A stretch of 64,000 nucleotides of DNA from Enterobacteria phage T6, in the sequence record MH550421. One strand, given 5' to 3'. Below the pieces are notes generated by a model that was not told where the DNA came from, searched no databases, and worked only from the letters and a program-made list of their open reading frames with translations. This document shows, one piece after another, positions 10,412 to 60,458 of this stretch; position 1 is the first letter of the stretch; every line of letters starts with the position of its first letter. A program made the position numbers and the translations under genes.

Positions 10412-11278
10412 ATGAAAAAATCTAACACAGTTCAATTTAGATACATATATAAAACAACCGTTACTAATCCGAAAGGATTAGTACGGGTTTATATTGGTAA
10501 ACATGAATCTAGATATTTTGATTTAGAAAATGATAAGTATAGAGGTTCCGGTGATTATATTAAAAAGATACGTAATAAACCTGGTTATAAAATAGATTTT
10601 GAAATAATTGAATTTGTTTCTACTTATGAAATTCTCAATTCAAGAGAAAGATATTGGATTTCGAAATATAAATCATCTGATATTCTATGTACCAATATAA
10701 AATCCGGCGGTGATGGTTTTTCATCTGAAGATTTGAAGAGAATGTGGTCTAATCCTGAATATAGGAAAGCTCAATTGAAGGCATTAGCTAAATCAACGTC
10801 AACTAAAGAATTTTCAGAGAAAATATCTAAAATAAACAAAGAAAGATGCGCATCGCCAGAATATCGAAAGAAAATGAGTAATGCGATGAAAACTGCTTTT
10901 GAAAATGATCCAACATTAAAAATTCGTATTTCTAATACCGTTAAATCTTTATGGAAATCCGATGAATATAGAAACAAATTAATCAATCATCCAGGAAAAA
11001 TAGAAGGAACGAAACAATCATGGAATGATCCTTTGATAAGAAAATCGAGATTAGATGCTAGAAATAAAAAACTAAGATCAGTTGAACCTTGGATTAGTAT
11101 AGAAAAAGTCAAAAAACTTTGGGAGGATTTGGGAAAACCACATCCACAGAAATACAAATGGTTTAGAGAAAAAGCAATTGAACACGACCTCCCGGATGTA
11201 AGTTATAACGCAATTTTAAAAGCGTTGAAAAAATGTGATTATAAATTTACATCATTAGAGAATTCAACAATTGGCTAA
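10412..11278 (+). CDS. segC: GIY-YIG homing endonuclease, Seg family (segC-like) with NUMOD-like repeats
   Basis: N-terminal YIYKTT...VYIGKH...RGSGDYIKK; three repeats (W/C)xxPEYR(K/N)K; strong RBS. Confidence 0.75.
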   Translation: MKKSNTVQFRYIYKTTVTNPKGLVRVYIGKHESRYFDLENDKYRGSGDYIKKIRNKPGYKIDFEIIEFVSTYEILNSRERYWISKYKSSDILCTNIKSGGDGFSSEDLKRMWSNPEYRKAQLKALAKSTSTKEFSEKISKINKERCASPEYRKKMSNAMKTAFENDPTLKIRISNTVKSLWKSDEYRNKLINHPGKIEGTKQSWNDPLIRKSRLDARNKKLRSVEPWISIEKVKKLWEDLGKPHPQKYKWFREKAIEHDLPDVSYNAILKALKKCDYKFTSLENSTIG

Positions 11279-19114: not shown

Positions 19115-20922
19115 TGAAACAAAATATTAATATCGGTAATGTTGTTGATGATGGTACCGGTGACTACCTGCGTAAAGGTGGTATAAAAATAAATGAAAAC
19201 TTTGATGAGCTTTATTATGAGCTTGGTGATGGAGATGTTCCATATTCAGCCGGTGCCTGGAAAACTTATGATGCTTCAACTGGCCAAACATTAAAAGCTG
19301 AGTGGGGGAAATCATACGCTATTAATACCTCTTCTGGAAGAGTAACTATAAATCTTCCAAAAGGAACTGTCAATGATTACAACAAGGTAATTAGAGCTAG
19401 AGACGTATTTGCTACATGGAACGTCAACCCAGTTACATTAGTAGCTGCTTCCGGCGATACGATTAAAGGGTCTGCAGTACCAGTTGAAATTAATGTTCAA
19501 TTTAGCGATTTAGAGTTAGTTTATTGTGCTCCAGGACGTTGGGAATATGTCAAAAATAAGCAAATTGACAAAATTACCAGTTCAGACATTAGTAATGTAG
19601 CTCGTAAAGAATTTTTAGTCGAAGTCCAAGGACAAACAGACTTTTTAGATGTTTTCCGTGGAACTAGTTATAATGTAAATAACATCAGAGTAAAACATCG
19701 TGGTAACGAATTGTATTACGGCGATGTATTTAGCGAAAACAGCGATTTTGGCTCTCCGGGCGAAAATGAAGGAGAATTAGTTCCTCTTGATGGATTTAAT
19801 ATTCGATTAAGACAGCCTTGTAATATTGGTGATACTGTTCAAATTGAAACATTTATGGATGGCGTATCACAGTGGAGAAGTTCATATACAAGACGTCAAA
19901 TTAGATTGTTAGATTCAAAATTAACGTCAAAGACTTCTTTAGAAGGAAGCATTTACGTTACTGATTTATCAACAATGAAATCAATTCCGTTTTCAGCTTT
20001 TGGATTAATTCCAGGTGAACCTATTAATCCTAATTCTCTTGAGGTACGTTTTAATGGAATTTTACAAGAATTGGCTGGAACAGTTGGAATGCCATTATTT
20101 CATTGCGTTGGTGCCGATTCAGACGATGAAGTAGAATGCTCTGTTTTAGGTGGAACTTGGGAACAGTCTCATACAGACTATTCAGTTGAAACTGATGAAA
20201 ATGGCATACCGGAAACATTGCACTTCGATAGAGTATTTGAGCATGGCGATATTATCAATATCACCTGGTTTAATAATGATTTAGGTACATTATTAACAAA
20301 AGATGAGATTATTGATGAAACTGATAATCTCTATGTATCGCAAGGACCAGGAGTAGATATTTCCGGTGATGTAAATTTAACAGACTTCGATAAAATTGGT
20401 TGGCCAAATGTAGAAGCAGTTCAATCTTATCAACGTGAATTTAATGCTGTTTCAAATATCTTTGATACGATTTATCCTATTGGAACTATATATGAAAACG
20501 CTGTTAATCCAAATAACCCTGTTACATATATGGGATTCGGCTCATGGAAATTATTTGGGCAAGGAAAAGTTTTAGTTGGATGGAATGAAGATATTTCGGA
20601 CCCTAACTTTGCTCTAAATAACAACGATTTAGATTCGGGTGGAAATCCTTCGCACACTGCGGGCGGAACAGGTGGTTCTACTTCTGTTACATTGGAAAAT
20701 GCTAATCTTCCTGCAACTGAGACAGATGAAGAAGTTCTAATAGTTGATGAAAATGGATCAGTCATTGTTGGTGGATGTCAATACGATCCAGATGAATCTG
20801 GTCCAGTTTACACGAAATACCGTGAAGCTAAAGCATCTACTAACTCTACTCACACTCCGCCAACATCAATAACTAACATTCAACCGTATATTACAGTTTA
20901 TCGTTGGATAAGGATTGCATAA
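19114..20922 (+). CDS. 10: gp10 baseplate wedge / short tail fibre attachment
   Basis: 602 aa; synteny. Confidence 0.9.
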
Positions 20923-24652: not shown

Positions 24653-27163
<2,511 letters not shown>

Positions 27164-32353: not shown

Positions 32354-32998
32354 TTGATTATGGGGCTTCGGCCCCTATTCTCGAGGAAACAAGTGATTAT
32401 TTCTAAGTTTGTTACAATAAAACCAAGAAATCATTCAAAAATGTGGTCGACAATTCTGGGATATAAAGTATCATATCATGATACAGTATCTGTTCCAATA
32501 GAATTAATGCCAAAGAATAGTAATAAAATAGTTGACGCTAAATGTGATTTGTGTGGTACTAAATTTAGTAGAAGCATTCAGCTTTTAAATAGAACACCCA
32601 CACATGCATGTAGAAAATGTAGCATTAAACAAGTTGCTATCAAAAATTCGGAAGTTCAATCTGGAATAAGCAGACCATGGCAAAGAGGTGATAAACATCC
32701 TCGATGGACTGGTAAAAGAAAAGAGTTTGCATTATATGCTAGTAGAGTTCATTCTATAACTAAGTCAGCTAAAATAAGAAAAATCTGGTCAAAATGGCCG
32801 AATGCTGATAAAATAGGAGTGTGTGGCGTAGAAGGTGCTTACCAACTCGATCATAAAGTATCTATCAAATATGGATTTGATAATTTAATTCCGCCGGAAA
32901 TTATAGCAAGCGTAAAAAATTTAGAAATAATCACTTGGGAATCTAACCGAGAAAAGTCAAAAAGAAATAGCGTAGATCTTTGGGATTTACTAGAATGA
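32354..32998 (+). CDS. putative HNH / His-Me finger endonuclease inserted between 18 and 19
   Basis: Cys-rich segment CDLCGTKF...HACRKCS; C-terminal YQLDHKVSIKYGFDN...N resembles HNH core; true start may be internal. Confidence 0.55.
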   Translation: MIMGLRPLFSRKQVIISKFVTIKPRNHSKMWSTILGYKVSYHDTVSVPIELMPKNSNKIVDAKCDLCGTKFSRSIQLLNRTPTHACRKCSIKQVAIKNSEVQSGISRPWQRGDKHPRWTGKRKEFALYASRVHSITKSAKIRKIWSKWPNADKIGVCGVEGAYQLDHKVSIKYGFDNLIPPEIIASVKNLEIITWESNREKSKRNSVDLWDLLE

Positions 32999-41123: not shown

Positions 41124-42128
41124 TTAACTTACCAATTCAATCCAAGCCGGACGAAGTACATCTTGTACCATTTTAACTAATTCCTTCTTAATCAAAGACG
41201 GATTATCCGCTTGAGTTAGAGTAATACCTTCACGAGAAGTTTCTTCCAAAATATCTTGAACAGTTAGTCCCATCACCTTTCCAAAATCCTTTGGACCAAT
41301 TTCGCCAATTTTAGAAATAACGTTATTTACTCGGTTCAGTGTAACGTAACAAGCTAAAATTCCAACCAATTTGTTATCAGCTTCTGACAGTTCAACTTTA
41401 GCTTTAATAGGCTTATCAGACTTTTTCTTTTCACTAAATTTAGAGTTCTTGCATTTGATGGCTACACGATTGCGATTAGGCAGCCAAGAAGGATAACAAG
41501 GTTTCAATACATATCCTTCAGCGGTAAATACTTCGCCTTTTGCTTCAGCATTCCAAACGCATTTATTTGCATCAACTAATCCAGCATGGTCTACCGTAAA
41601 ATTATAATCCTGTACGACAGAATCTAAATCATTTGGCAATTTAATCAGCTCTTCAAATTTACCGCGACCTAAAAGTGGAGCCATTTTAAATTTAAACGTA
41701 TTACAGAATGATTCCATCATATAATCATCGACATAAGTTACATCACCACTTTCTGTAGTAACAATAATGTCAAATACATAAAAATCTTTATCACCATAAT
41801 CGACATTCTTCTGAATGCCAGGTCCAGCGAATTCGCCAAAGACTTGATAAGATACAACCGCTGAAGTTTCCATAATATCTTGTACTGCTTTAATGGAATC
41901 AGCGTAATTCTTCAAAATAATTTCATACCCAAAGAAATCTTCAGCAGGAAGAATAGGACCAGTGCGTTTAGCACAAGTTACTTTATCACGCTCAATAATC
42001 AATGAGAAATTTGTGCCATGAATCTTTTCACGAGCTACCCATTCGCCGCCAGTCAATCCTAAACTGTAAAGTTTTTCAATAAATTTAGAGTTGTAATGAT
42101 TTTCAAGACTGCTATACTTTTTAAACAT
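41124..42128 (-). CDS. rnlB: RNA ligase 2
   Basis: 334 aa; lysine-nucleotidyltransferase motif EKIHGTN near N-terminus; position after gene 24. Confidence 0.9.
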
Positions 42129-42670: not shown

Positions 42671-42702
42671 CTTTCAAAATGAAGAAAGGGGCCGAAGCCC
42701 CT
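42671..42702 (-). terminator. intrinsic terminator after hoc
   Basis: Minus-strand hairpin AGGGGC-UUCG-GCCCCU followed by UUCUUCAUUUUG. Confidence 0.6.
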
Positions 42703-42707
42703 TATGA

Positions 42708-43839
42708 TTATGGATAGGTATAGATGATACCAGTTTCTAAAGCAGTTTTATGAATGATGTATCCATTACGTGATTCTTGAACATCAACTTCTGGATAGTC
42801 TTTCATCATCTTCTGAAGAGTGTAACGATGCAGGTAGTATTTACTATCTGGATCTTCAGTTTTCCAATCTTTACCTTCTTCAGTCATTTTTTGAATTTCA
42901 TCCATAACCCACCAACCGCACCAGATGTAAGCTGAAGTACGATGTGGAAGAGGATGAACATAAGGTAATTCACCTTCTGGTTCTGGAGCAACTTTATCAG
43001 TTACCTGAACTTGACCTTCTGCTGTAATAGTTTTGCTATCATAATCAGTAGCAGTAACGACGGCAGTCACTTCAATAGTTTGACTTCCAATAGATGAGGT
43101 ATCAACGGTATATACATTAGTTGACCCTTCTACAGGAGAAGAATCTTTCTTCCATGAATACGCAATTTGCGCTTCTTCTGGAGCATCAGTAACATTAGCA
43201 GTAAATGTAGCCGAAGCATCTTGTTGAACGTTAATAGAAGGAGGAGTCAATGTAACCTGTGGATTCATTGTCTTCTTATTAACCGTTAATGATACTTCAT
43301 TAGAAGTAACTTCCTTTTCATTGTAATTTTCTGCAGTTACTTGGGCTACGCATTTAATTCTTTTTAACTCCACTTGTAGTTGGAGTGTAATTGAATGTAG
43401 CGGAAGTTGCTTCGTCCACAGGAGAACCGTCAACGTACCACTGATATGTGGCGTTTGCGCCCGATGGCTGCGAAGCTAAAGTAGCGGTAAATTCAACAGC
43501 TGTTCCGATTACTCCAGCATCAGGGCTACCAGGAGTTACGGCTAAAGTAGTTGTTTGTGTCTTATTTTGAACTGTGATAGTTGTACTAATTTCAGCTGTT
43601 TCGGGACTACTATCGGCAACTTGATTTGTTGCAACTACTTTAATAGTCTTTTGACCGGCAGGTCCTTTTAGTACATAACTAAAAGTTGCTGACGTTTCTT
43701 CCTGTGGAACATCGTCTACAGTCCAAGCATAGGTAATAGTTCCACCTCCAGTTTCACCACTGGGTGTAGCAGTAAACTGCTTAGTTTCATCAATAACCCC
43801 TGTTGGTGTTTTAGGAGTTATATCAACTGTAAAAGCCAT
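42708..43839 (-). pseudogene. hoc: hoc (Ig-like capsid decoration protein) split by +1 frameshift
   Basis: ORFs 43354..43839 and 42708..43433 are two frames of one Ig-repeat gene; frame changes at an A5 run near 43363-43367. Confidence 0.7.
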
Positions 43840-43848
43840 AAGTTATCC

Positions 43849-44529
43849 TTATTTTAATGTTACGAAAGAAGAATTACGTGTTTCACGAATTAGAACTGAT
43901 CCGTCGCGATTAATGTAATAAATTAAGCTAAATAAAGTTTGGTGTGCCGACGCATGTTCAAAACTAGTTGGTTGAGATTTCCAATCCGGAGTTTCAGCGA
44001 TCCATTGATAAATCCACCAAGGAACAGTGCAGAATCCTGGATTTTTTCCAATCAGCTGAAGATTCGGACTAAAGTTTTCCGGAAGAGTAAATACAGACGG
44101 CTTTTCAGATTCAATAATCTCAGCTACAGCCTGTTCGAATTTTTCTTCAACAAAAGGAGTATCTTCAATCAAAACTGAGGTATTTTCAGGAATTTTATCA
44201 GTTTCTACTACTTCAATTTTAATGTCAGATTTAATCGGAGAATCAATCAGAAGTGCTGCTTCTGGATTGACTTCTTCATCGTCATATTTTAATCCCTCTG
44301 CGGCATCAGCAGCATCAATTAAGTCTTTAATAGATAACCCATCAGTCTCTGGCATAGGTTCACTAGCGAGCTTCTGGAGGGCTTCTTCAATATCATTAAC
44401 GATATTATCAAAAGATTTATTCTTTTTGACCTTTATACCAAACTGTTCAGCATATTCAGCTAATTTAGCTTTAGCTTCTTTGTTATCATCAAGAGCCTTC
44501 AGCTCTGCAATATAATCTTTATCTATCAT
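43849..44529 (-). CDS. inh: Inh, inhibitor of prohead protease
   Basis: 226 aa at the position between hoc and segE. Confidence 0.8.
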   Translation of the reverse strand: MIDKDYIAELKALDDNKEAKAKLAEYAEQFGIKVKKNKSFDNIVNDIEEALQKLASEPMPETDGLSIKDLIDAADAAEGLKYDDEEVNPEAALLIDSPIKSDIKIEVVETDKIPENTSVLIEDTPFVEEKFEQAVAEIIESEKPSVFTLPENFSPNLQLIGKNPGFCTVPWWIYQWIAETPDWKSQPTSFEHASAHQTLFSLIYYINRDGSVLIRETRNSSFVTLK

Positions 44530-45198: not shown

Positions 45199-46706
45199 AT
45201 GGATATTAAAGTACATTTTCACGACTTCAGTCATGTACGCATCGATTGTGAAGAGAGCACGTTTCACGAATTAAGAGATTTCTTTTCGTTTGAGGCCGAT
45301 GGATATAGATTTAATCCTCGCTTCAGATGTGGCAACTGGGATGGACGAATCCGTCTTTTAGATTATAATCGACTTCTTCCATTCGGCTTAGTCGGGCAAA
45401 TTAAAAAGTTCTGTGATAACTTTGGCTATAAAGCCTGGATTGACCCACAAATTAACGAAAAAGAAGAATTATCAAGAAAAGATTTTGATGAATGGCTTTC
45501 TAAATTAGAAATCTATTCAGGAAATAAAAGAATTGAACCACACTGGTATCAAAAAGATGCAGTGTTCGAAGGATTAGTTAATCGTCGTAGAATTCTTAAT
45601 CTTCCAACATCTGCAGGTAAATCTTTAATTCAAGCTTTGCTTGCGCGGTATTATTTGGAAAATTATGAAGGTAAAATTCTTATCATTGTTCCAACAACTG
45701 CTCTGACAACTCAGATGGCTGATGACTTTGTTGACTATCGTTTATTCAGTCATGCAATGATAAAGAAAATCGGTGGCGGAGCATCAAAAGATGATAAATA
45801 TAAAAATGATGCACCAGTCGTTGTTGGTACATGGCAAACTGTAGTTAAACAACCGAAAGAATGGTTCTCACAGTTTGGAATGATGATGAATGATGAATGC
45901 CATCTTGCTACAGGAAAAAGTATTTCATCTATCATATCAGGATTAAATAATTGCATGTTTAAATTTGGTTTGTCTGGTTCATTACGTGATGGAAAAGCCA
46001 ATATCATGCAGTATGTTGGAATGTTTGGTGAAATATTTAAGCCAGTAACGACTTCTAAGTTAATGGAAGATGGACAAGTAACTGAGCTAAAAATTAATAG
46101 TATTTTTCTTCGCTATCCCGATGAGTTCACTACTAAATTAAAGGGAAAAACTTACCAAGAAGAAATAAAAATTATTACTGGGCTTAGTAAAAGAAATAAA
46201 TGGATCGCTAAATTAGCTATTAAGCTTGCGCAAAAAGATGAAAACGCTTTTGTCATGTTTAACATGTATCGCATGGTAAAGCTATTTTCGATTTAATTAA
46301 AAATGAATACGATAAAGTTTATTACGTATCAGGGGAAGTTGATACCGAAACCCGCAATATAATGAAAACCTTAGCTGAAAATGGTAAAGGAATAATTATA
46401 GTAGCTAGTTATGGTGTATTTTCTACTGGTATTTCAGTTAAAAATCTGCATCACGTTGTTTTAGCGCACGGTGTTAAATCAAAAATCATTGTATTACAAA
46501 CAATCGGTCGTGTATTACGTAAGCATGGTTCTAAAACAATCGCAACAGTCTGGGACCTCATAGATGACGCGGGCGTAGTTTCTAAATCAAAAACATCTTC
46601 TAAAAAATACTCGCATTTAAACTATCTTTTAAAACATGGAATTGATCGTATTCAGCGTTATGCTGATGAAAAGTTTAATTATGTGATGAAAGAGGTTAAA
46701 CTTTGA
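45199..46706 (+). pseudogene. uvsW: uvsW helicase split by -1 frameshift
   Basis: ORF 45199..46296 (helicase motif PTSAGKS) ends after frame change at TTTAAC near 46258-46263; downstream frame continues HVSHGKAIFDLIKNEYDKV... to 46706. Confidence 0.7.
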
Positions 46707-47395
46707 ATTATAAATTAATATATGATAATTTAATTAATAGAGCCCAGAATCGGGCTCGCCTTAATGAATACACTGAAACACATCATATAATTCCTAGATG
46801 TATGGGTGGTACAAATGATAAGTGTAATTTAGTAGAACTAACGGCTGAAGAACATTTTATAGCCCATAAACTTTTAGCTAAAATTCATCCAAACCATTAC
46901 GGTATAATTAAAGCTGTTATATGTATGGGGATGAATTCAAATACTCATGAAAGACACGTCAATAAATCTTACGCATGGGAACGTCGTAAAATGGCAGAAC
47001 TTCAATCCGGCGAAGGTAATCCATTTTACGGAAAACACCATACGGAAGAACATAAACAATATATGTCAAAACTCATGAAAAGTCGTCCAATTACATGGGG
47101 AAATAAAATTAGTAAAACTAAAAGAATGAACCCAACGAAATGGACTGAAGAAGCTAAAAGATTACATTCAATCAATCAATCGGGTAAAAATAACGGCATG
47201 TATGGAAGGAAACATTCCGCTAAATCTATTCAGAAAATTAAAGATAACATGCCAGATAATTCAGGAGCTAATAACCCAGCTGCTAAACCTATAGAAGTAA
47301 ATGGTGTTAAGTATAAATGTATGAAAGATGCTTCTAAAGCTACTGGATTATCAATGTACAAACTAAGAATACTTAGAAAAACAGTTAATTTATAA
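46703..47395 (+). CDS. freestanding HNH endonuclease, paralog of the 13/14 HNH; probable TTG start
   Basis: ETHHIIPRCMGGTNDKCNLVELTAEEHFIAH; N-terminus MNYKLIYDNLINR matches [13 protein letters not shown] at 25579; GAGG RBS before TTG. Confidence 0.75.
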   Translation: MNYKLIYDNLINRAQNRARLNEYTETHHIIPRCMGGTNDKCNLVELTAEEHFIAHKLLAKIHPNHYGIIKAVICMGMNSNTHERHVNKSYAWERRKMAELQSGEGNPFYGKHHTEEHKQYMSKLMKSRPITWGNKISKTKRMNPTKWTEEAKRLHSINQSGKNNGMYGRKHSAKSIQKIKDNMPDNSGANNPAAKPIEVNGVKYKCMKDASKATGLSMYKLRILRKTVNL

Positions 47396-47408: not shown

Positions 47409-47651
47409 TTGGAGAAAAAGATGTTACTAGAATTTAAACAATTTCTTTATGAAGCTTCTATTGATGAATTTATGGGTAAAATTGCCTCTTGTCAAACATT
47501 AGAAGGTTTAGAAGAACTTGAAGCTTATTATAAGAAAAGAGTCAAAGAAACTGAATTAAAAGATACTGATGACATCTCTGTGAGAGATGCTTTGGCAGGA
47601 AAAAGAGCTGAATTAGAAGATTCAGACGATGAAGTAGAAGAAAGCTTTTAA
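47409..47651 (+). CDS. uvsW.1: small acidic helical protein (UvsW.1-like)
   Basis: 80 aa with RBS GGAGAAAAAG; position downstream of uvsW. Confidence 0.65.
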   Translation: MEKKMLLEFKQFLYEASIDEFMGKIASCQTLEGLEELEAYYKKRVKETELKDTDDISVRDALAGKRAELEDSDDEVEESF

Positions 47652-56300: not shown

Positions 56301-58358
56301 CTACATTTTGAACTTTTTAGACATTCCGTTGATGTTAACCAAAGAAGCTAAGATTTGAGAAACTTCGTTTTCCTCTTCTTTTGATTCTTCTACAAGGAAT
56401 TGATTAAATCCAGTCATTGGACGAACTTCACCAGTTTCCATTAGATGGTCTCCATCATATACTGATTCTTCTAATTGTTCAGAAGGAGGAACGATTGTAC
56501 CTTCGATTAGATACTTGTTATAAGCAGTTTCTTTCATAAAGTACGTACTTACTTTATTAATCTTCAGTAAAATTCCACGCGGTAGAATAACTTCAGCTTC
56601 TGATGGAAATCCTGTTAAATGACCTGGAACGATAACTTTGATTCGCTCAGCTCCTTTAATTACCATACCCACGCTAGTTTCAGCATCTTCATTAGCATAT
56701 GTAGAATGACTACCCATATGCATCAAATCTTCTGCATCAACAGAACCTTCTCCTTCGCCAGAAAATACTTCACCGGAATCATCTAGAGCCATATAGTTTT
56801 TACCATGCTCACCGAAGATATTCGGTTTAAGCGATGTAGATACGAAGTTCTTGAAATAGAACATTTTGTTTTCAATGTTATGACGCAAAGTTTTAAAGGT
56901 AACTTCTTGTCCACGATAAAGCGTAGTTCCTGGAGGAAGAACTGAACCTTTAGCGAATGCAGAATCCAACGTCTCGATGTGCTTAATGGCACGTTCCATA
57001 TATTCTTCACGGGTAGAATCTGGTTTACCCAAAAGGAACGAGTTCATTTCAACATATGAATCTGCACAATAATCTTCAATTACATCAGATTCAGCTTGAG
57101 TTAATCCTTTTGGAGTTACTTCAGTACTTGCATATTCATACGCCTGAGCAGCAGATTCATTAATCAATTTATAAATGCCATTCATTACAAATTGAATAAT
57201 AGCTGTCTTTTCATCTGGCGTGGCTTTAGAACCTTTAACTAAATCATTAATAATTTTCTTAATAACATCAAAGCTATTAGAAATATTAATGTCAGCAAGA
57301 TCGCTTAAAATTTTATCAGTTTTATAATCAAAGAATTCTTTATTCTTTAAATATTCTTGAGAACCTTGATATGTTATATCGCTCTGCAGCTTGATAGATG
57401 GATCACGTAAACGCGCATGGGCCAATGCGATATGATTTCGGAAGTTTTCTAGTTCATAATCGCTAGATTTAAAACGAGAAGCACTCCTCATACCACCGAT
57501 AGCTCCTTTGCCGAAGTTTGAACCAATCTGGATAACGCCAGAGTTCATCGGACCTTCTGCTTTATATACCGGAACTTTAGATTCAAACTCTTGATATTTC
57601 TTGGCAGCGAAGCTATCACCCTGAAGTGAAGCATCAACAGTAGAATATTGAGCTTGTGCTGCTAATCGACGACTAATTTTAGTTTTCTGAATAACAGCTT
57701 GGTCCGTGCGCTTATCATTTTCTAAAGCAATAGAAGCAGCAACAGCGACAGCTTTAGGAACAGCATTACCTGTTTTAACGTCTACATAAACATCACCAAC
57801 CTTTGATTCAACTTTTGTGAATAACTCAGTTGAAATAGGAGGTACACCTGGAATGTCTTCTAAATTGGCATTTTTACGGTAAACCATAATATATGCGTAC
57901 TTTTTATCATAATCCCAGATTTCCTTTAAAAGAACATATCGACCTGCTCCTTTAATACGTACTAAACGGTCAGCAATAACTTGCATTTGACGAGCAGCGC
58001 CATTTGTTTTACTTTTTAGTACGCGGAATAAGCATGCGTCGATTTTATACTGTTTCATTGTTTGAAGAGCAGTATCAAAAACAGCATTAATGACGCCAAT
58101 TGGATTTCCACCCAAGTTTTTAAGCTTGACTAACGATAATTTCTCGTTGACACCTATCATTACGATATGCATCATTTTATCGCCTGGCTTAACGTTTTTA
58201 TTTGTATCACCGCCAGAGGTGTATGTACAAAATCTAAATCCAGGAAGCACACTTTCTTCGCCGGCTTGAATAGCAAAAATTTGTGGTATTTTATGCTTAG
58301 GATTTAAGTTAACAACCGGCGCCGAAGCGCCGTCAAATAATTCTGTAATAAGTTCCAT
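56301..58358 (-). CDS. Alt-family ADP-ribosyltransferase paralog (685 aa)
   Basis: N-terminus MELITELFD and first about 200 aa parallel the neighbouring alt; C-terminal Arg-STS-ExE motifs YRGQEV...FVSTSL...EAEVILPRG. Confidence 0.85.
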   Translation of the reverse strand: MELITELFDGASAPVVNLNPKHKIPQIFAIQAGEESVLPGFRFCTYTSGGDTNKNVKPGDKMMHIVMIGVNEKLSLVKLKNLGGNPIGVINAVFDTALQTMKQYKIDACLFRVLKSKTNGAARQMQVIADRLVRIKGAGRYVLLKEIWDYDKKYAYIMVYRKNANLEDIPGVPPISTELFTKVESKVGDVYVDVKTGNAVPKAVAVAASIALENDKRTDQAVIQKTKISRRLAAQAQYSTVDASLQGDSFAAKKYQEFESKVPVYKAEGPMNSGVIQIGSNFGKGAIGGMRSASRFKSSDYELENFRNHIALAHARLRDPSIKLQSDITYQGSQEYLKNKEFFDYKTDKILSDLADINISNSFDVIKKIINDLVKGSKATPDEKTAIIQFVMNGIYKLINESAAQAYEYASTEVTPKGLTQAESDVIEDYCADSYVEMNSFLLGKPDSTREEYMERAIKHIETLDSAFAKGSVLPPGTTLYRGQEVTFKTLRHNIENKMFYFKNFVSTSLKPNIFGEHGKNYMALDDSGEVFSGEGEGSVDAEDLMHMGSHSTYANEDAETSVGMVIKGAERIKVIVPGHLTGFPSEAEVILPRGILLKINKVSTYFMKETAYNKYLIEGTIVPPSEQLEESVYDGDHLMETGEVRPMTGFNQFLVEESKEEENEVSQILASLVNINGMSKKFKM

Positions 58359-58361
58359 GAT

Positions 58362-60458
58362 TTATCCTTGAACGAACTTGTAAGGCATGTTTGTAATATC
58401 TATGCAAGACGCAATAATTCCAAGAGATGATTCTACTTTCTGTTTAACATTTGATGAAACAAATGATGCAAAGTCAACTCTGTCTTCTATTTCAATATCA
58501 CCTGTCATTGCAACTACTTCACCGGTTTCCATTAAACAGTCTCCGTCATAGATTACCGATTCGGTGAGTTCTTCTGTGGTCATAACTTCAGCTTGAATGA
58601 GTTTTGTATTGTTAGATGTTGTTCCATCATTATTAGAAGCATCAGTTATTTTATTAACTTTGACCATTAATCCGCGCGGTAGAATAACTTCAGCTTCTGT
58701 TGCTATTCCGAGACTTCCTGGATATACAACATTAACTTTATGAGCTCCATCAATTGCCCATCCTATTTGAACTTTAACGTATTCAGGATTTTCTTTATAC
58801 GCTCTTATTTCGTTTGGATTAATAGTTATTCCTTCTTCATTTTTATCAACTGTTAATTCATTGCGAGCTTCTGGTTCTAAAAGACCAATACCAGCATGTG
58901 TAATTCCAAAACGTCCAAAAATGATAGGAGTTAAAGAAGTAGATACAAAATTTCTGAAATAGAATACTTTATTTTTAACTAGCGCTTCGTATATAGGAGC
59001 AGTCATACTTTGAGCACGATAAACTGTAATGCCTTCCGGTATGCGGTCACCATTTTCAAAAGCTGAATCTAAATTATTTATAGCAGATTCAATTTCTTTT
59101 TCACTCATTACATCATATCGTTCTGGATTGTAACGACCTAAAAGAAGATTATTAATGTCTGTATATCCTGAACCACAATACTCTCTAATACCGCGCTTTT
59201 GCGATGGAGTATATTTAGAACCATCACGGGCAATAGTAATATCAATCATTGGGCCTGCACCAATTCCAGAAAAACTATAAATCATTCGTTTGAGGAATTT
59301 AGTTTTTGCTGCATTCCAGGCATTTTTAGTTATTTCTCCCCAGACTTCATCTGGTTGCCCTTTACGAGTTTTATTATGTTTATCAAGCCAATTATCTTTA
59401 TATTCTTCAAAGAATTGATTGACAGCTGCTGCGTATTTCTCTAAACATTTTATTGAAGTAGTTGGTTCATTTTTGATCGCATTAAGAATTACATCTTTAA
59501 TTTTTTCGGAAACTTCATTAACCTCACTTTTTGAAAAGAATTTATAGTCATAGTGAAGTTCATTCGCAGTTCCTTCGGCAATAATTTTTGCTGCCTTAGT
59601 TTTAGAAGCTAATGAATTAATTCCAAGCTTCATTTCTTCTGCTTCGGGAATTAAAGGAGCAGTAGCAGGTTTATTGAAATTAGCTGCGGTAGATTCATAC
59701 TTCTGGAATAATTCACTTTCAAATCTAGAAGATTCCAATGACTGACTTTGTGCAATTGCTCTACGGGAAATTTTAACTTTAACGATTACAGCTTGGTCAG
59801 AACGTTTATCATTTTCTTGTGCAATAGATGCTGCAATTGCCTCATTTTTAGTTACTTGAGCTCCAGTATCTTTATTGATATAAACATCACCGACCTTCGA
59901 TTCAACCTTAGTAAAGAGCTCGGTACTAATTTCCGGAACTCCTGGAATGTCTTCTAGTGATACATTTTTGCGATGTATAAGAATATATGCATACTTTTTA
60001 TCATAATCCCAGAGTTCCTTAAGAAGGACGTATCTTCCACCTGAACGACTACGGATAAGTCTATCAGCAATAACTTGAATTTGTCGAGCTTGGCCAGCAG
60101 TTTTAGACTTAAGAATACGAAGCATGCAGGCATCAATTTTATACTGACGCATTGTTTGCATTGCAACAGTAAAAACTGAATTGATATAATTAATTGGGCT
60201 TGGTCCAAGACCTTTTAATTTAGCAATTGAACCTTTAGCAGTTAATGTAAAAGGAACAATATGCATCATTTTATCGCCCATTTTTAAATCGCGATTAGTA
60301 TCACCTCCGGATGTATAGGTACATAAACGAAAGCCTGGTTGTTCAATTGCATCATCAACATGAACTGAAAAAATTTGCGGTATTTTCTTCTTTGGATTTA
60401 AGTTTGTAATTGGAAGAGTAGTATCTTCGTCAAATAATTCTGTAATGAGTTCCATCAT
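58362..60458 (-). CDS. alt: Alt ADP-ribosyltransferase (698 aa)
   Basis: MMELITELFD...; C-terminal YRAQSM...FVSTSLTP...EAEVILPRG; position next to ligase gene 30. Confidence 0.9.
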   Translation of the reverse strand: MMELITELFDEDTTLPITNLNPKKKIPQIFSVHVDDAIEQPGFRLCTYTSGGDTNRDLKMGDKMMHIVPFTLTAKGSIAKLKGLGPSPINYINSVFTVAMQTMRQYKIDACMLRILKSKTAGQARQIQVIADRLIRSRSGGRYVLLKELWDYDKKYAYILIHRKNVSLEDIPGVPEISTELFTKVESKVGDVYINKDTGAQVTKNEAIAASIAQENDKRSDQAVIVKVKISRRAIAQSQSLESSRFESELFQKYESTAANFNKPATAPLIPEAEEMKLGINSLASKTKAAKIIAEGTANELHYDYKFFSKSEVNEVSEKIKDVILNAIKNEPTTSIKCLEKYAAAVNQFFEEYKDNWLDKHNKTRKGQPDEVWGEITKNAWNAAKTKFLKRMIYSFSGIGAGPMIDITIARDGSKYTPSQKRGIREYCGSGYTDINNLLLGRYNPERYDVMSEKEIESAINNLDSAFENGDRIPEGITVYRAQSMTAPIYEALVKNKVFYFRNFVSTSLTPIIFGRFGITHAGIGLLEPEARNELTVDKNEEGITINPNEIRAYKENPEYVKVQIGWAIDGAHKVNVVYPGSLGIATEAEVILPRGLMVKVNKITDASNNDGTTSNNTKLIQAEVMTTEELTESVIYDGDCLMETGEVVAMTGDIEIEDRVDFASFVSSNVKQKVESSLGIIASCIDITNMPYKFVQG

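Follow-up and report, generated by a model that had tools for sequence, protein, structure and literature searches.

Phage T6 is a classical T-even reference phage that is now widely used in work on anti-phage defence and in phage engineering. In the stretch of its genome that was analysed here (64,000 nucleotides of sequence record MH550421, referred to below as the window), the gene for the capsid decoration protein Hoc (highly immunogenic outer capsid protein), an Ig-domain fibre that stands in the middle of every gp23 hexamer, is represented by two open reading frames. The question is whether T6 carries a real lesion in hoc or a base was added in sequencing and, if the lesion is real, whether the phage still decorates its capsid.

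The 5′ ORF lies on the minus strand at 43354–43839. It starts with the ATG at 43839, which has an AAGGA Shine-Dalgarno sequence ahead of it in the minus-strand reading, and it encodes 161 residues: Ig-like domain 1, about two-thirds of domain 2, and a final KN that is out of frame. Its C-terminus reads ...NYTPTTSGVKKN, and the TAA stop codon is at 43354–43356. The remainder of hoc, from K159 to P376 and the stop codon, occupies the +1 frame at 42708–43364 (minus strand) and encodes the remaining part of Ig domain 2 together with domain 3 and the capsid-binding domain. The ORF in this frame spans 42708–43433, carries ...LKRIKCVAQVTA..., and reaches the normal Hoc C-terminus, ...GIIYTYP. An upstream ORF ending in YTPTTSGVKKN and its continuation in the +1 frame are thus seen on the minus strand, as the initial annotation had described. 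In a tblastn search, residues 1–160 of T4 Hoc align at 43839–43360 (79% identity, frame −2) and residues 158–376 at 43367–42711 (89.5% identity, frame −3). Because the two segments match in two frames, the ORFs are two parts of one gene, and the ORF listing and the tblastn alignment agree that hoc is split by a one-base insertion at an A-run.

When one base is removed, a Hoc protein of 376 aa is obtained that aligns over its full length with the T4 Hoc chains of the PDB (5vf3_Z, E = 1.5e-210). Of residues 1–280, 229 are identical between the repaired T6 Hoc and T4 Hoc. The Ig-like domains were detected by the Pfam PKD model at threshold and by I-set and Ig_3 below threshold. The coding sequence of the capsid-binding domain (residues 281–376; 42711–42998, minus strand) is intact and out of frame with the start codon, and a terminator-like intrinsic hairpin (AAGGGGCTTCGGCCCCTT followed by a T-run; 42686–42703, minus strand) lies directly past the hoc stop codon. 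The surroundings are those of T4, with the gene order rnlB-24.2-24.3-hoc-inh-segE-uvsW. T4 proteins map on the minus strand as rnlB (41127–42128), 24.2, 24.3, hoc (42711–43839), and inh (43852–44529). T6 hoc has no single uninterrupted frame that links the Ig domains to the binding domain. Since the stop follows codon 161 and the remainder is in the +1 frame, the T6 locus is a hoc pseudogene or null allele, and not a functional hoc.

The split is already visible in public annotation, but we found no paper noting it in the literature searched. The deposited T6 record annotates two adjacent Hoc coding sequences (BBF63597 and BBF63596), and RefSeq NC_054907.1 has two "Hoc-like head decoration" entries at the same place. 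The 161-aa product is BBF63597.1/YP_010067326.1 in the T6 record. The two coding sequences would be better annotated by RefSeq as one pseudogene. Outside hoc, the DDBJ T6 record AP018814.1 has many clearly mistaken product names, among them "baseplate wedge subunit" for RNA ligase 2, "tail tape measure protein" for SegE, "baseplate hub subunit and tail lysozyme" for gp24, and "aerobic NDP reductase large subunit" for gp13.

The frame switch occurs at GGAGTTAAAAAGAATTAAATG, in which the TT is at 43366–43367 and the A5 run at 43361–43365. This TTAAAAA (43361–43367, minus strand), inside GGAGTTAAAAAGAATT, is one base longer than the site in every in-frame relative, and the insertion falls in hoc codons 158–160 (GGA GTT AAA AAG AAT TAA). 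The site had been recognized correctly beforehand, although its coordinates (43363–43367) were about 2 nt off. In-frame relatives read GTA AAA AGA, GTT AAA AGA, or GTT AAA AAA ATT at this position. T4 and most relatives have GGAGT-AAAAAGAATT (GTA AAA AGA), that is, five As in frame, and an exact 36-mer of this form is present in 208 phage records. A minority of the relatives have GGAGTTAAAAGAATT, and others have GGAGTTAAAAAAATT with an A7 run. The expectation that four As in place of five would give a readthrough protein of about 376 aa holds for the length, since removal of one base gives 376 aa. However, T4 itself has A5 in frame; therefore, the extra base of T6 may be a T or an A, and the change is described just as well by T to TT as by A4 to A5. 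A 37-mer across the T6 site was found, among 50,697 phage records, only in the two T6 records, and this allele was absent from IMG/VR, the JGI metagenomes, and the GTDB genomes.

A homopolymer miscall that added a base to a truly intact T6 hoc would produce the same split. The site is a short homopolymer junction, and a second single-base indel is present in the window, in uvsW; both points would suit such an error. However, the insertion is reproduced in three T6 sources. Across hoc, the window is 100% identical to the T6 record AP018814.1/NC_054907.1. Only three differences from AP018814.1 were found over the 64 kb of the window: the SNPs G>A at 20810 (gp10 codon 566) and A>G at 32835, and the loss of one base at 46261 in uvsW. 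In codon 566, the window reads TAC (Tyr566 of gp10) like T4, and the record has TGC (Cys), which is the derived state. The T4-like base in the window and the derived base in the record indicate that the window is an independent T6 sequence; the idea that it is the deposited record with edits planted in it was rejected on this ground. The third source, the Logan assembly of SRR24085887, contains the exact 161-aa product and the same GGAGTTAAAAAGAATT, with one unrelated mismatch. In addition, homopolymer miscalls typically need a longer run than TT+A5, and no intact Hoc of the T6 type was found: the exact repaired protein (376 aa) was absent from a collection of about 15 billion proteins, and none of the retrieved intact Hoc proteins was more than 95% identical to it (best, 95%). 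Because AP018814.1, the window, and SRR24085887 have the insertion in common, it is real and not a homopolymer error, and a miscall at this site is scarcely credible. Other T6 stocks might be intact, since the three sources possibly belong to one laboratory lineage.

The Logan contig of T6 has a C>T change (L009 position 914, corresponding to window position 42934) that would replace Ser with Leu in HRTSAYIW, in the presumably untranslated capsid-binding part. Drift in a dead ORF could account for this change, as could a read error.

The deletion in uvsW changes TTTAAACATG to TTTAACATG (plus strand, ORF 45199–46296) and truncates the UvsW helicase at 365 aa. The truncated product had no match in protein records. 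Neither the deposited T6 record nor T4 has this deletion, which occurs in the window only. Either the T6 stock behind the window carries it as a private variant, or the window sequence is wrong at this base. A second frameshift in an A-run, which had been cited as a possible sign of systematic homopolymer error, is thus present in the window at 46261, but it is private to it. Since the uvsW indel is restricted to the window and the hoc insertion is present in all sources, the two have separate causes, and no common systematic error is indicated. The absence of the deletion from the deposited T6 record and T4 makes it uninformative on the hoc site. With three T6 sources in agreement and the uvsW indel confined to one, the suspicion that systematic error split hoc finds no support. 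Independently of this deletion, a 230-aa ORF for an HNH/NUMOD3 homing endonuclease (46703–47395, plus strand) breaks T6 uvsW after about residue 502, in the window and in the record alike, and the 80-aa ORF that follows (47409–47651, plus strand) matches the C-terminal part of T4 UvsW, residues 494–587. The T6 UvsW helicase is therefore encoded in two pieces.

Several other differences from T4 were observed in the window. Extra ORFs are located on the plus strand at approximately 10412–11278 (between genes 5 and 5.1), 25580–26392 (13/14), and 32393–32998 (18/19), and these could be mobile insertions of the endonuclease type. Counterparts of T4 segC and 5.3 are missing from the T4 position, and segC matches only paralogous seg genes elsewhere. 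Two tandem full-length paralogues of the ADP-ribosyltransferase gene alt are present at 56310–58358 and 58365–60455 (minus strand), with 41% and 70% identity to T4 Alt; at this position T4 has alt and the small remnants alt.-1 and alt.-2. An apparent truncation of gene 67, suggested by the tblastn alignment, was rejected because the difference consists of two in-frame insertions in the acidic repeat.

The neighbourhood of the insertion is a mosaic of two hoc haplotypes, with a breakpoint at 43300–43485 (minus strand). On the 5′ side, T6 resembles phages F1 and FN. Over hoc nt 355–474, it has 0–2 mismatches per 60 nt against F1 and 7–19 against other references. Over hoc nt 475–534, it has 13 mismatches against F1 and only three against the IMG/VR locus L010, which has the T4-type site; this 3′ side is of the AENYNEKE type, as in L010. 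The switch is sharp, at hoc nt 475–480. F1-specific bases extend up to the second T of GTT, and L010-specific bases begin with the G that follows the A-run, which places the crossover within the A-run itself. T6 hoc thus consists of a left arm of the F1 type (...GGAGTT, A7 type) and a right arm of the T4/L010 type (AAAAAGAATT...). A crossover in register would yield the in-frame A4 form that is known in other phages, and T6 has one A more. In one possible route, a crossover or heteroduplex between the two haplotypes would have been resolved one base out of register in the A-run. In another, an in-register recombinant would have slipped later from A4 to A5 during replication. The lesion most likely arose in one of these two ways, by out-of-register recombination or by later slippage. 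The repaired T6 Hoc has no private residue in comparison with 81 intact homologues of 376 aa, and the frameshift is its sole lesion. Therefore, the lesion is recent.

Hoc consists of three Ig-like domains and a C-terminal capsid-binding domain, residues 281–376 (PMC10385173). The latter contacts gp23* through Y293, H295, Y304, W306, W309, W310, Q354, and Y360, and contains the conserved motif ESRNG at 355–359 (PMC10385173). In T6, 93 of the 96 residues of this domain are identical to those of T4, and all 13 of these contact and motif residues are kept. However, the whole domain is encoded past the break, in a frame other than that of the only credible start. Translation from the normal hoc start would end after 161 residues, and the product, which stops inside Ig domain 2, is predicted to be unable to bind the capsid. 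The T4 mutant HAP1, which has an ochre codon at residue 166, has a capsid without Hoc (PMC10580926). With the binding domain out of frame, and with a stop only six codons later sufficient to remove Hoc from HAP1 capsids, T6 is most likely a natural Hoc-null phage, and its virions would be expected to carry no Hoc or almost none. Searches of the literature returned no virion protein, proteomics, or cryo-EM data on Hoc in T6. Null mutations in hoc do not affect phage production, infectivity, or viability (PMC3012670), and T6 is viable because Hoc is dispensable. The lost binding domain, HAP1, and the viable null mutants together bear out the early suggestion that a natural null was plausible.

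Some Hoc could still be made if ribosomes slipped by +1 on GUU-AAA-A, which would produce exact wild-type Hoc and partial decoration of the capsid. The tRNA-Lys would re-pair perfectly from AAA to AAA, with AGA as the next codon, and a Shine-Dalgarno-like GGAG is found 2 nt upstream, a placement that we take to resemble the prfB arrangement. However, GGAG is part of the conserved Ser-Gly-Val coding sequence and is found in intact genes too. The 0-frame codon in the A site is AAG, an ordinary codon that is neither a stop nor slow or rare, and five As in a row are too few for transcriptional slippage. Recoding would require an intact downstream ORF that keeps all capsid-contact residues, as is the case in T6, but a recent lesion explains this equally well. 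Programmed frameshifting is recognized by a conserved split together with a slippery site. Here, the split is not conserved: the 37-mer occurs in T6 alone, the ORF is continuous in all close relatives, and the best 120 homologues are nearly all full-length, in size classes of four, five, or six domains. Leaky recoding of T6 hoc is therefore improbable.

The 3′ ORF might also be translated alone, for example from the ATG at M191, to give a protein of 186 aa that binds the capsid. Such a product would consist of Ig domain 3 and the capsid-binding domain, its ORF is intact, and other phages have naturally short Hoc proteins in which the binding domain is joined to one or two Ig domains (PMC10385173). 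Nevertheless, the signals for its expression are poor. The GTG start annotated in the record, at 43373, has no Shine-Dalgarno sequence; the first in-frame ATG, M191 (KKTMNPQ), is preceded only by AAGAAG with a 3-nt spacer; and the ATG directly past the stop is in the wrong frame. The late-promoter consensus TATAAATA was not found inside hoc, which also speaks against separate expression, as does the Ser-to-Leu change that the Logan T6 source already has in the 3′ part. We consider a separately made short Hoc highly improbable. The best overall explanation, to which we assign a probability of roughly 0.78, is that hoc contains a real and recent +1-nt insertion and that T6 capsids are free of Hoc or nearly so.

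Split hoc genes are not restricted to T6. In an even sample of 60 from 658 related records, about six have a split hoc annotation (about 10%). Several of the lesions fall in the codons of the same strand motif, TSGVK(K/R)IKC. In T2 (at least seven records), A7 became A6 at exactly the T6 position. Phage FN has A8 in place of A7, its near-identical sibling F1 has A7 (genomes of 168,411 and 168,410 nt, respectively), and NHEP10 also has A8; the products of FN and NHEP10 have the same TTSGVKKN end as that of T6. In PM107, PM108, 101117BS1, and UPWr_E2, A7 became A6 in the paralogous motif of the second (extra) Ig domain of the five-domain form. In Bas39 (FriedrichMiescher), annotated as "Hoc part 1/part 2", G4 became G5 in AGTGGGGGTTAA, 5 nt upstream of the A-run. 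Lesions at other places in the gene were found in L029, JK42, OE5505, and G29, and T2 has two more. When only lesions found without site-specific queries are counted and T6 is left out, 5 of 11 fall in about 1% of hoc (P about 6e-8 under a uniform model). The site is a recurrent slippage hot spot, and homopolymer slippage is the obvious cause. The motif codons hold runs of A4–A7 and G4 and are a general weak point of hoc, at which independent +1 and −1 slippage alleles have inactivated the gene elsewhere. Some of the A6 and A8 alleles (FN, NHEP10, and the PM107 group) could be homopolymer sequencing errors. The lesions of T2, T6, and Bas39 are well supported; in T2, the hoc tract length was six in 2238 of 2238 reads, with no variant, according to one tabulated row of a deep-sequencing supplement (bioRxiv 10.1101/2025.10.21.683753). 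The 186-aa "Hoc fragment" of REP4, one of a group that resembled a further class of lesion, is only the end of a linear record.

In environmental sequences, only 1 of 21 hoc loci in IMG/VR is frame-broken and the other 20 are not, numbers that are too few for an estimate of frequency. Pattern scans of IMG/VR and metagenomes yielded four contigs of the poly(A) form, all of which have the in-frame A7 and an intact gene. The relatives with A7 include F1, L012, and L041–L044.

Hoc also varies in length. Among close relatives, proteins of 376, 472, 568, and 664 aa differ by steps of about 96 aa, which fits one Ig domain per step, and in-frame domain-deletion variants of 283, 292, and 341 aa were observed (length variation set: L032 (slur03), L013, and P0001–P0038). 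This variation suggests that the Ig-domain repeats often recombine unequally.

Contingency loci are homopolymers of at least 6 bp with reversible frameshifts and have been described in T2, T4, and T6 (Gomez, Barrick & Waters, bioRxiv 10.1101/2025.10.21.683753). The A6 tract of T2 hoc is among the simple sequence repeats listed in that study. The A and G runs of TSGVK(K/R)IKC might act as a phase-variation switch by which tequatroviruses turn the display of Hoc, their immunodominant and mucus-adhering fibre, off and on, a proposal that we regard as unlikely on present evidence. If it were true, selection would favour OFF alleles outside the gut, for instance when phages are propagated in the laboratory; T6 would be a recombinant locked in the OFF state, and T2 an older, decayed OFF allele. 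Tract lengths corresponding to ON and OFF states are found in close relatives and not in T6: A7 in F1 against A8 in FN, and A6 in T2 and the PM107 group. The T6 run is an A5 interrupted by G, shorter than the A7 of the relatives. The idea of a contingency locus thus fits relatives of the A7 type but not T6 itself.

Null alleles of hoc that are natural or arose spontaneously are already known, for instance in T2 and HAP1. What is new is that an artefact in T6 is now very unlikely, that its lesion lies at a recombination junction, and that the hot spot is common to T2, T6, and field isolates. If T6 lacks Hoc like T2, T4 has the only decorated capsid of the three. Such a loss would bear on how these phages compare in immunogenicity, mucus adherence (the BAM model), aggregation, and capsid display. 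With about one-tenth of the sequenced relatives having a split hoc, most often within these few nucleotides, the gene offers a simple and testable case of the recurrent loss of a decoration protein by slippage. A study from 2026 chose KMB99_gp220, the 3′ fragment, as the "Hoc-like" insertion site of T6 and did not mention that it is a fragment (PMC13532311); this status matters for engineering that is driven by annotation.

Compared with the contingency loci, T6 hoc shares the mechanism, polymerase slippage in a homopolymer that switches a gene off or on. Its A5, however, is below the 6-bp threshold, and it is not in the T6 table of the preprint.

HAP1 (T4 delta-Hoc; C496T, Q166*) is the closest functional parallel, since its stop lies within six codons of that of T6 and in the same strand of Ig domain 2. 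HAP1 is viable and has a capsid without Hoc (PMC10580926), whereas the state of the T6 virion is predicted from the sequence. The two also differ in origin: HAP1 is a spontaneous substitution that was selected in the laboratory from T4, and the T6 allele is a +1 frameshift in the standard genome sequence.

T2 (NC_054931, KMC23_gp228/gp229; AP018813, LC348380, MH751506, PV958097, SV76) is likewise a classical T-even phage with a broken hoc, and one of its lesions is a single-base change of an A-run (A7 to A6) at the nucleotide position of the T6 insertion. However, T2 hoc carries three lesions that break the frame (−11, −1, and −2 nt) and is therefore an older, decayed pseudogene, whereas T6 hoc has a single lesion and no decay. 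To our knowledge, T2 capsids lack Hoc.

In the field isolates FN, NHEP10, the PM107 group, and Bas39, as in T6, an A or G run of TSGVK(K/R)IKC has gained or lost one base. Their lesions lie in uninterrupted A7 or G4 runs, whereas the run in T6 is interrupted (AAAAAGAA) and is located at a recombination junction.
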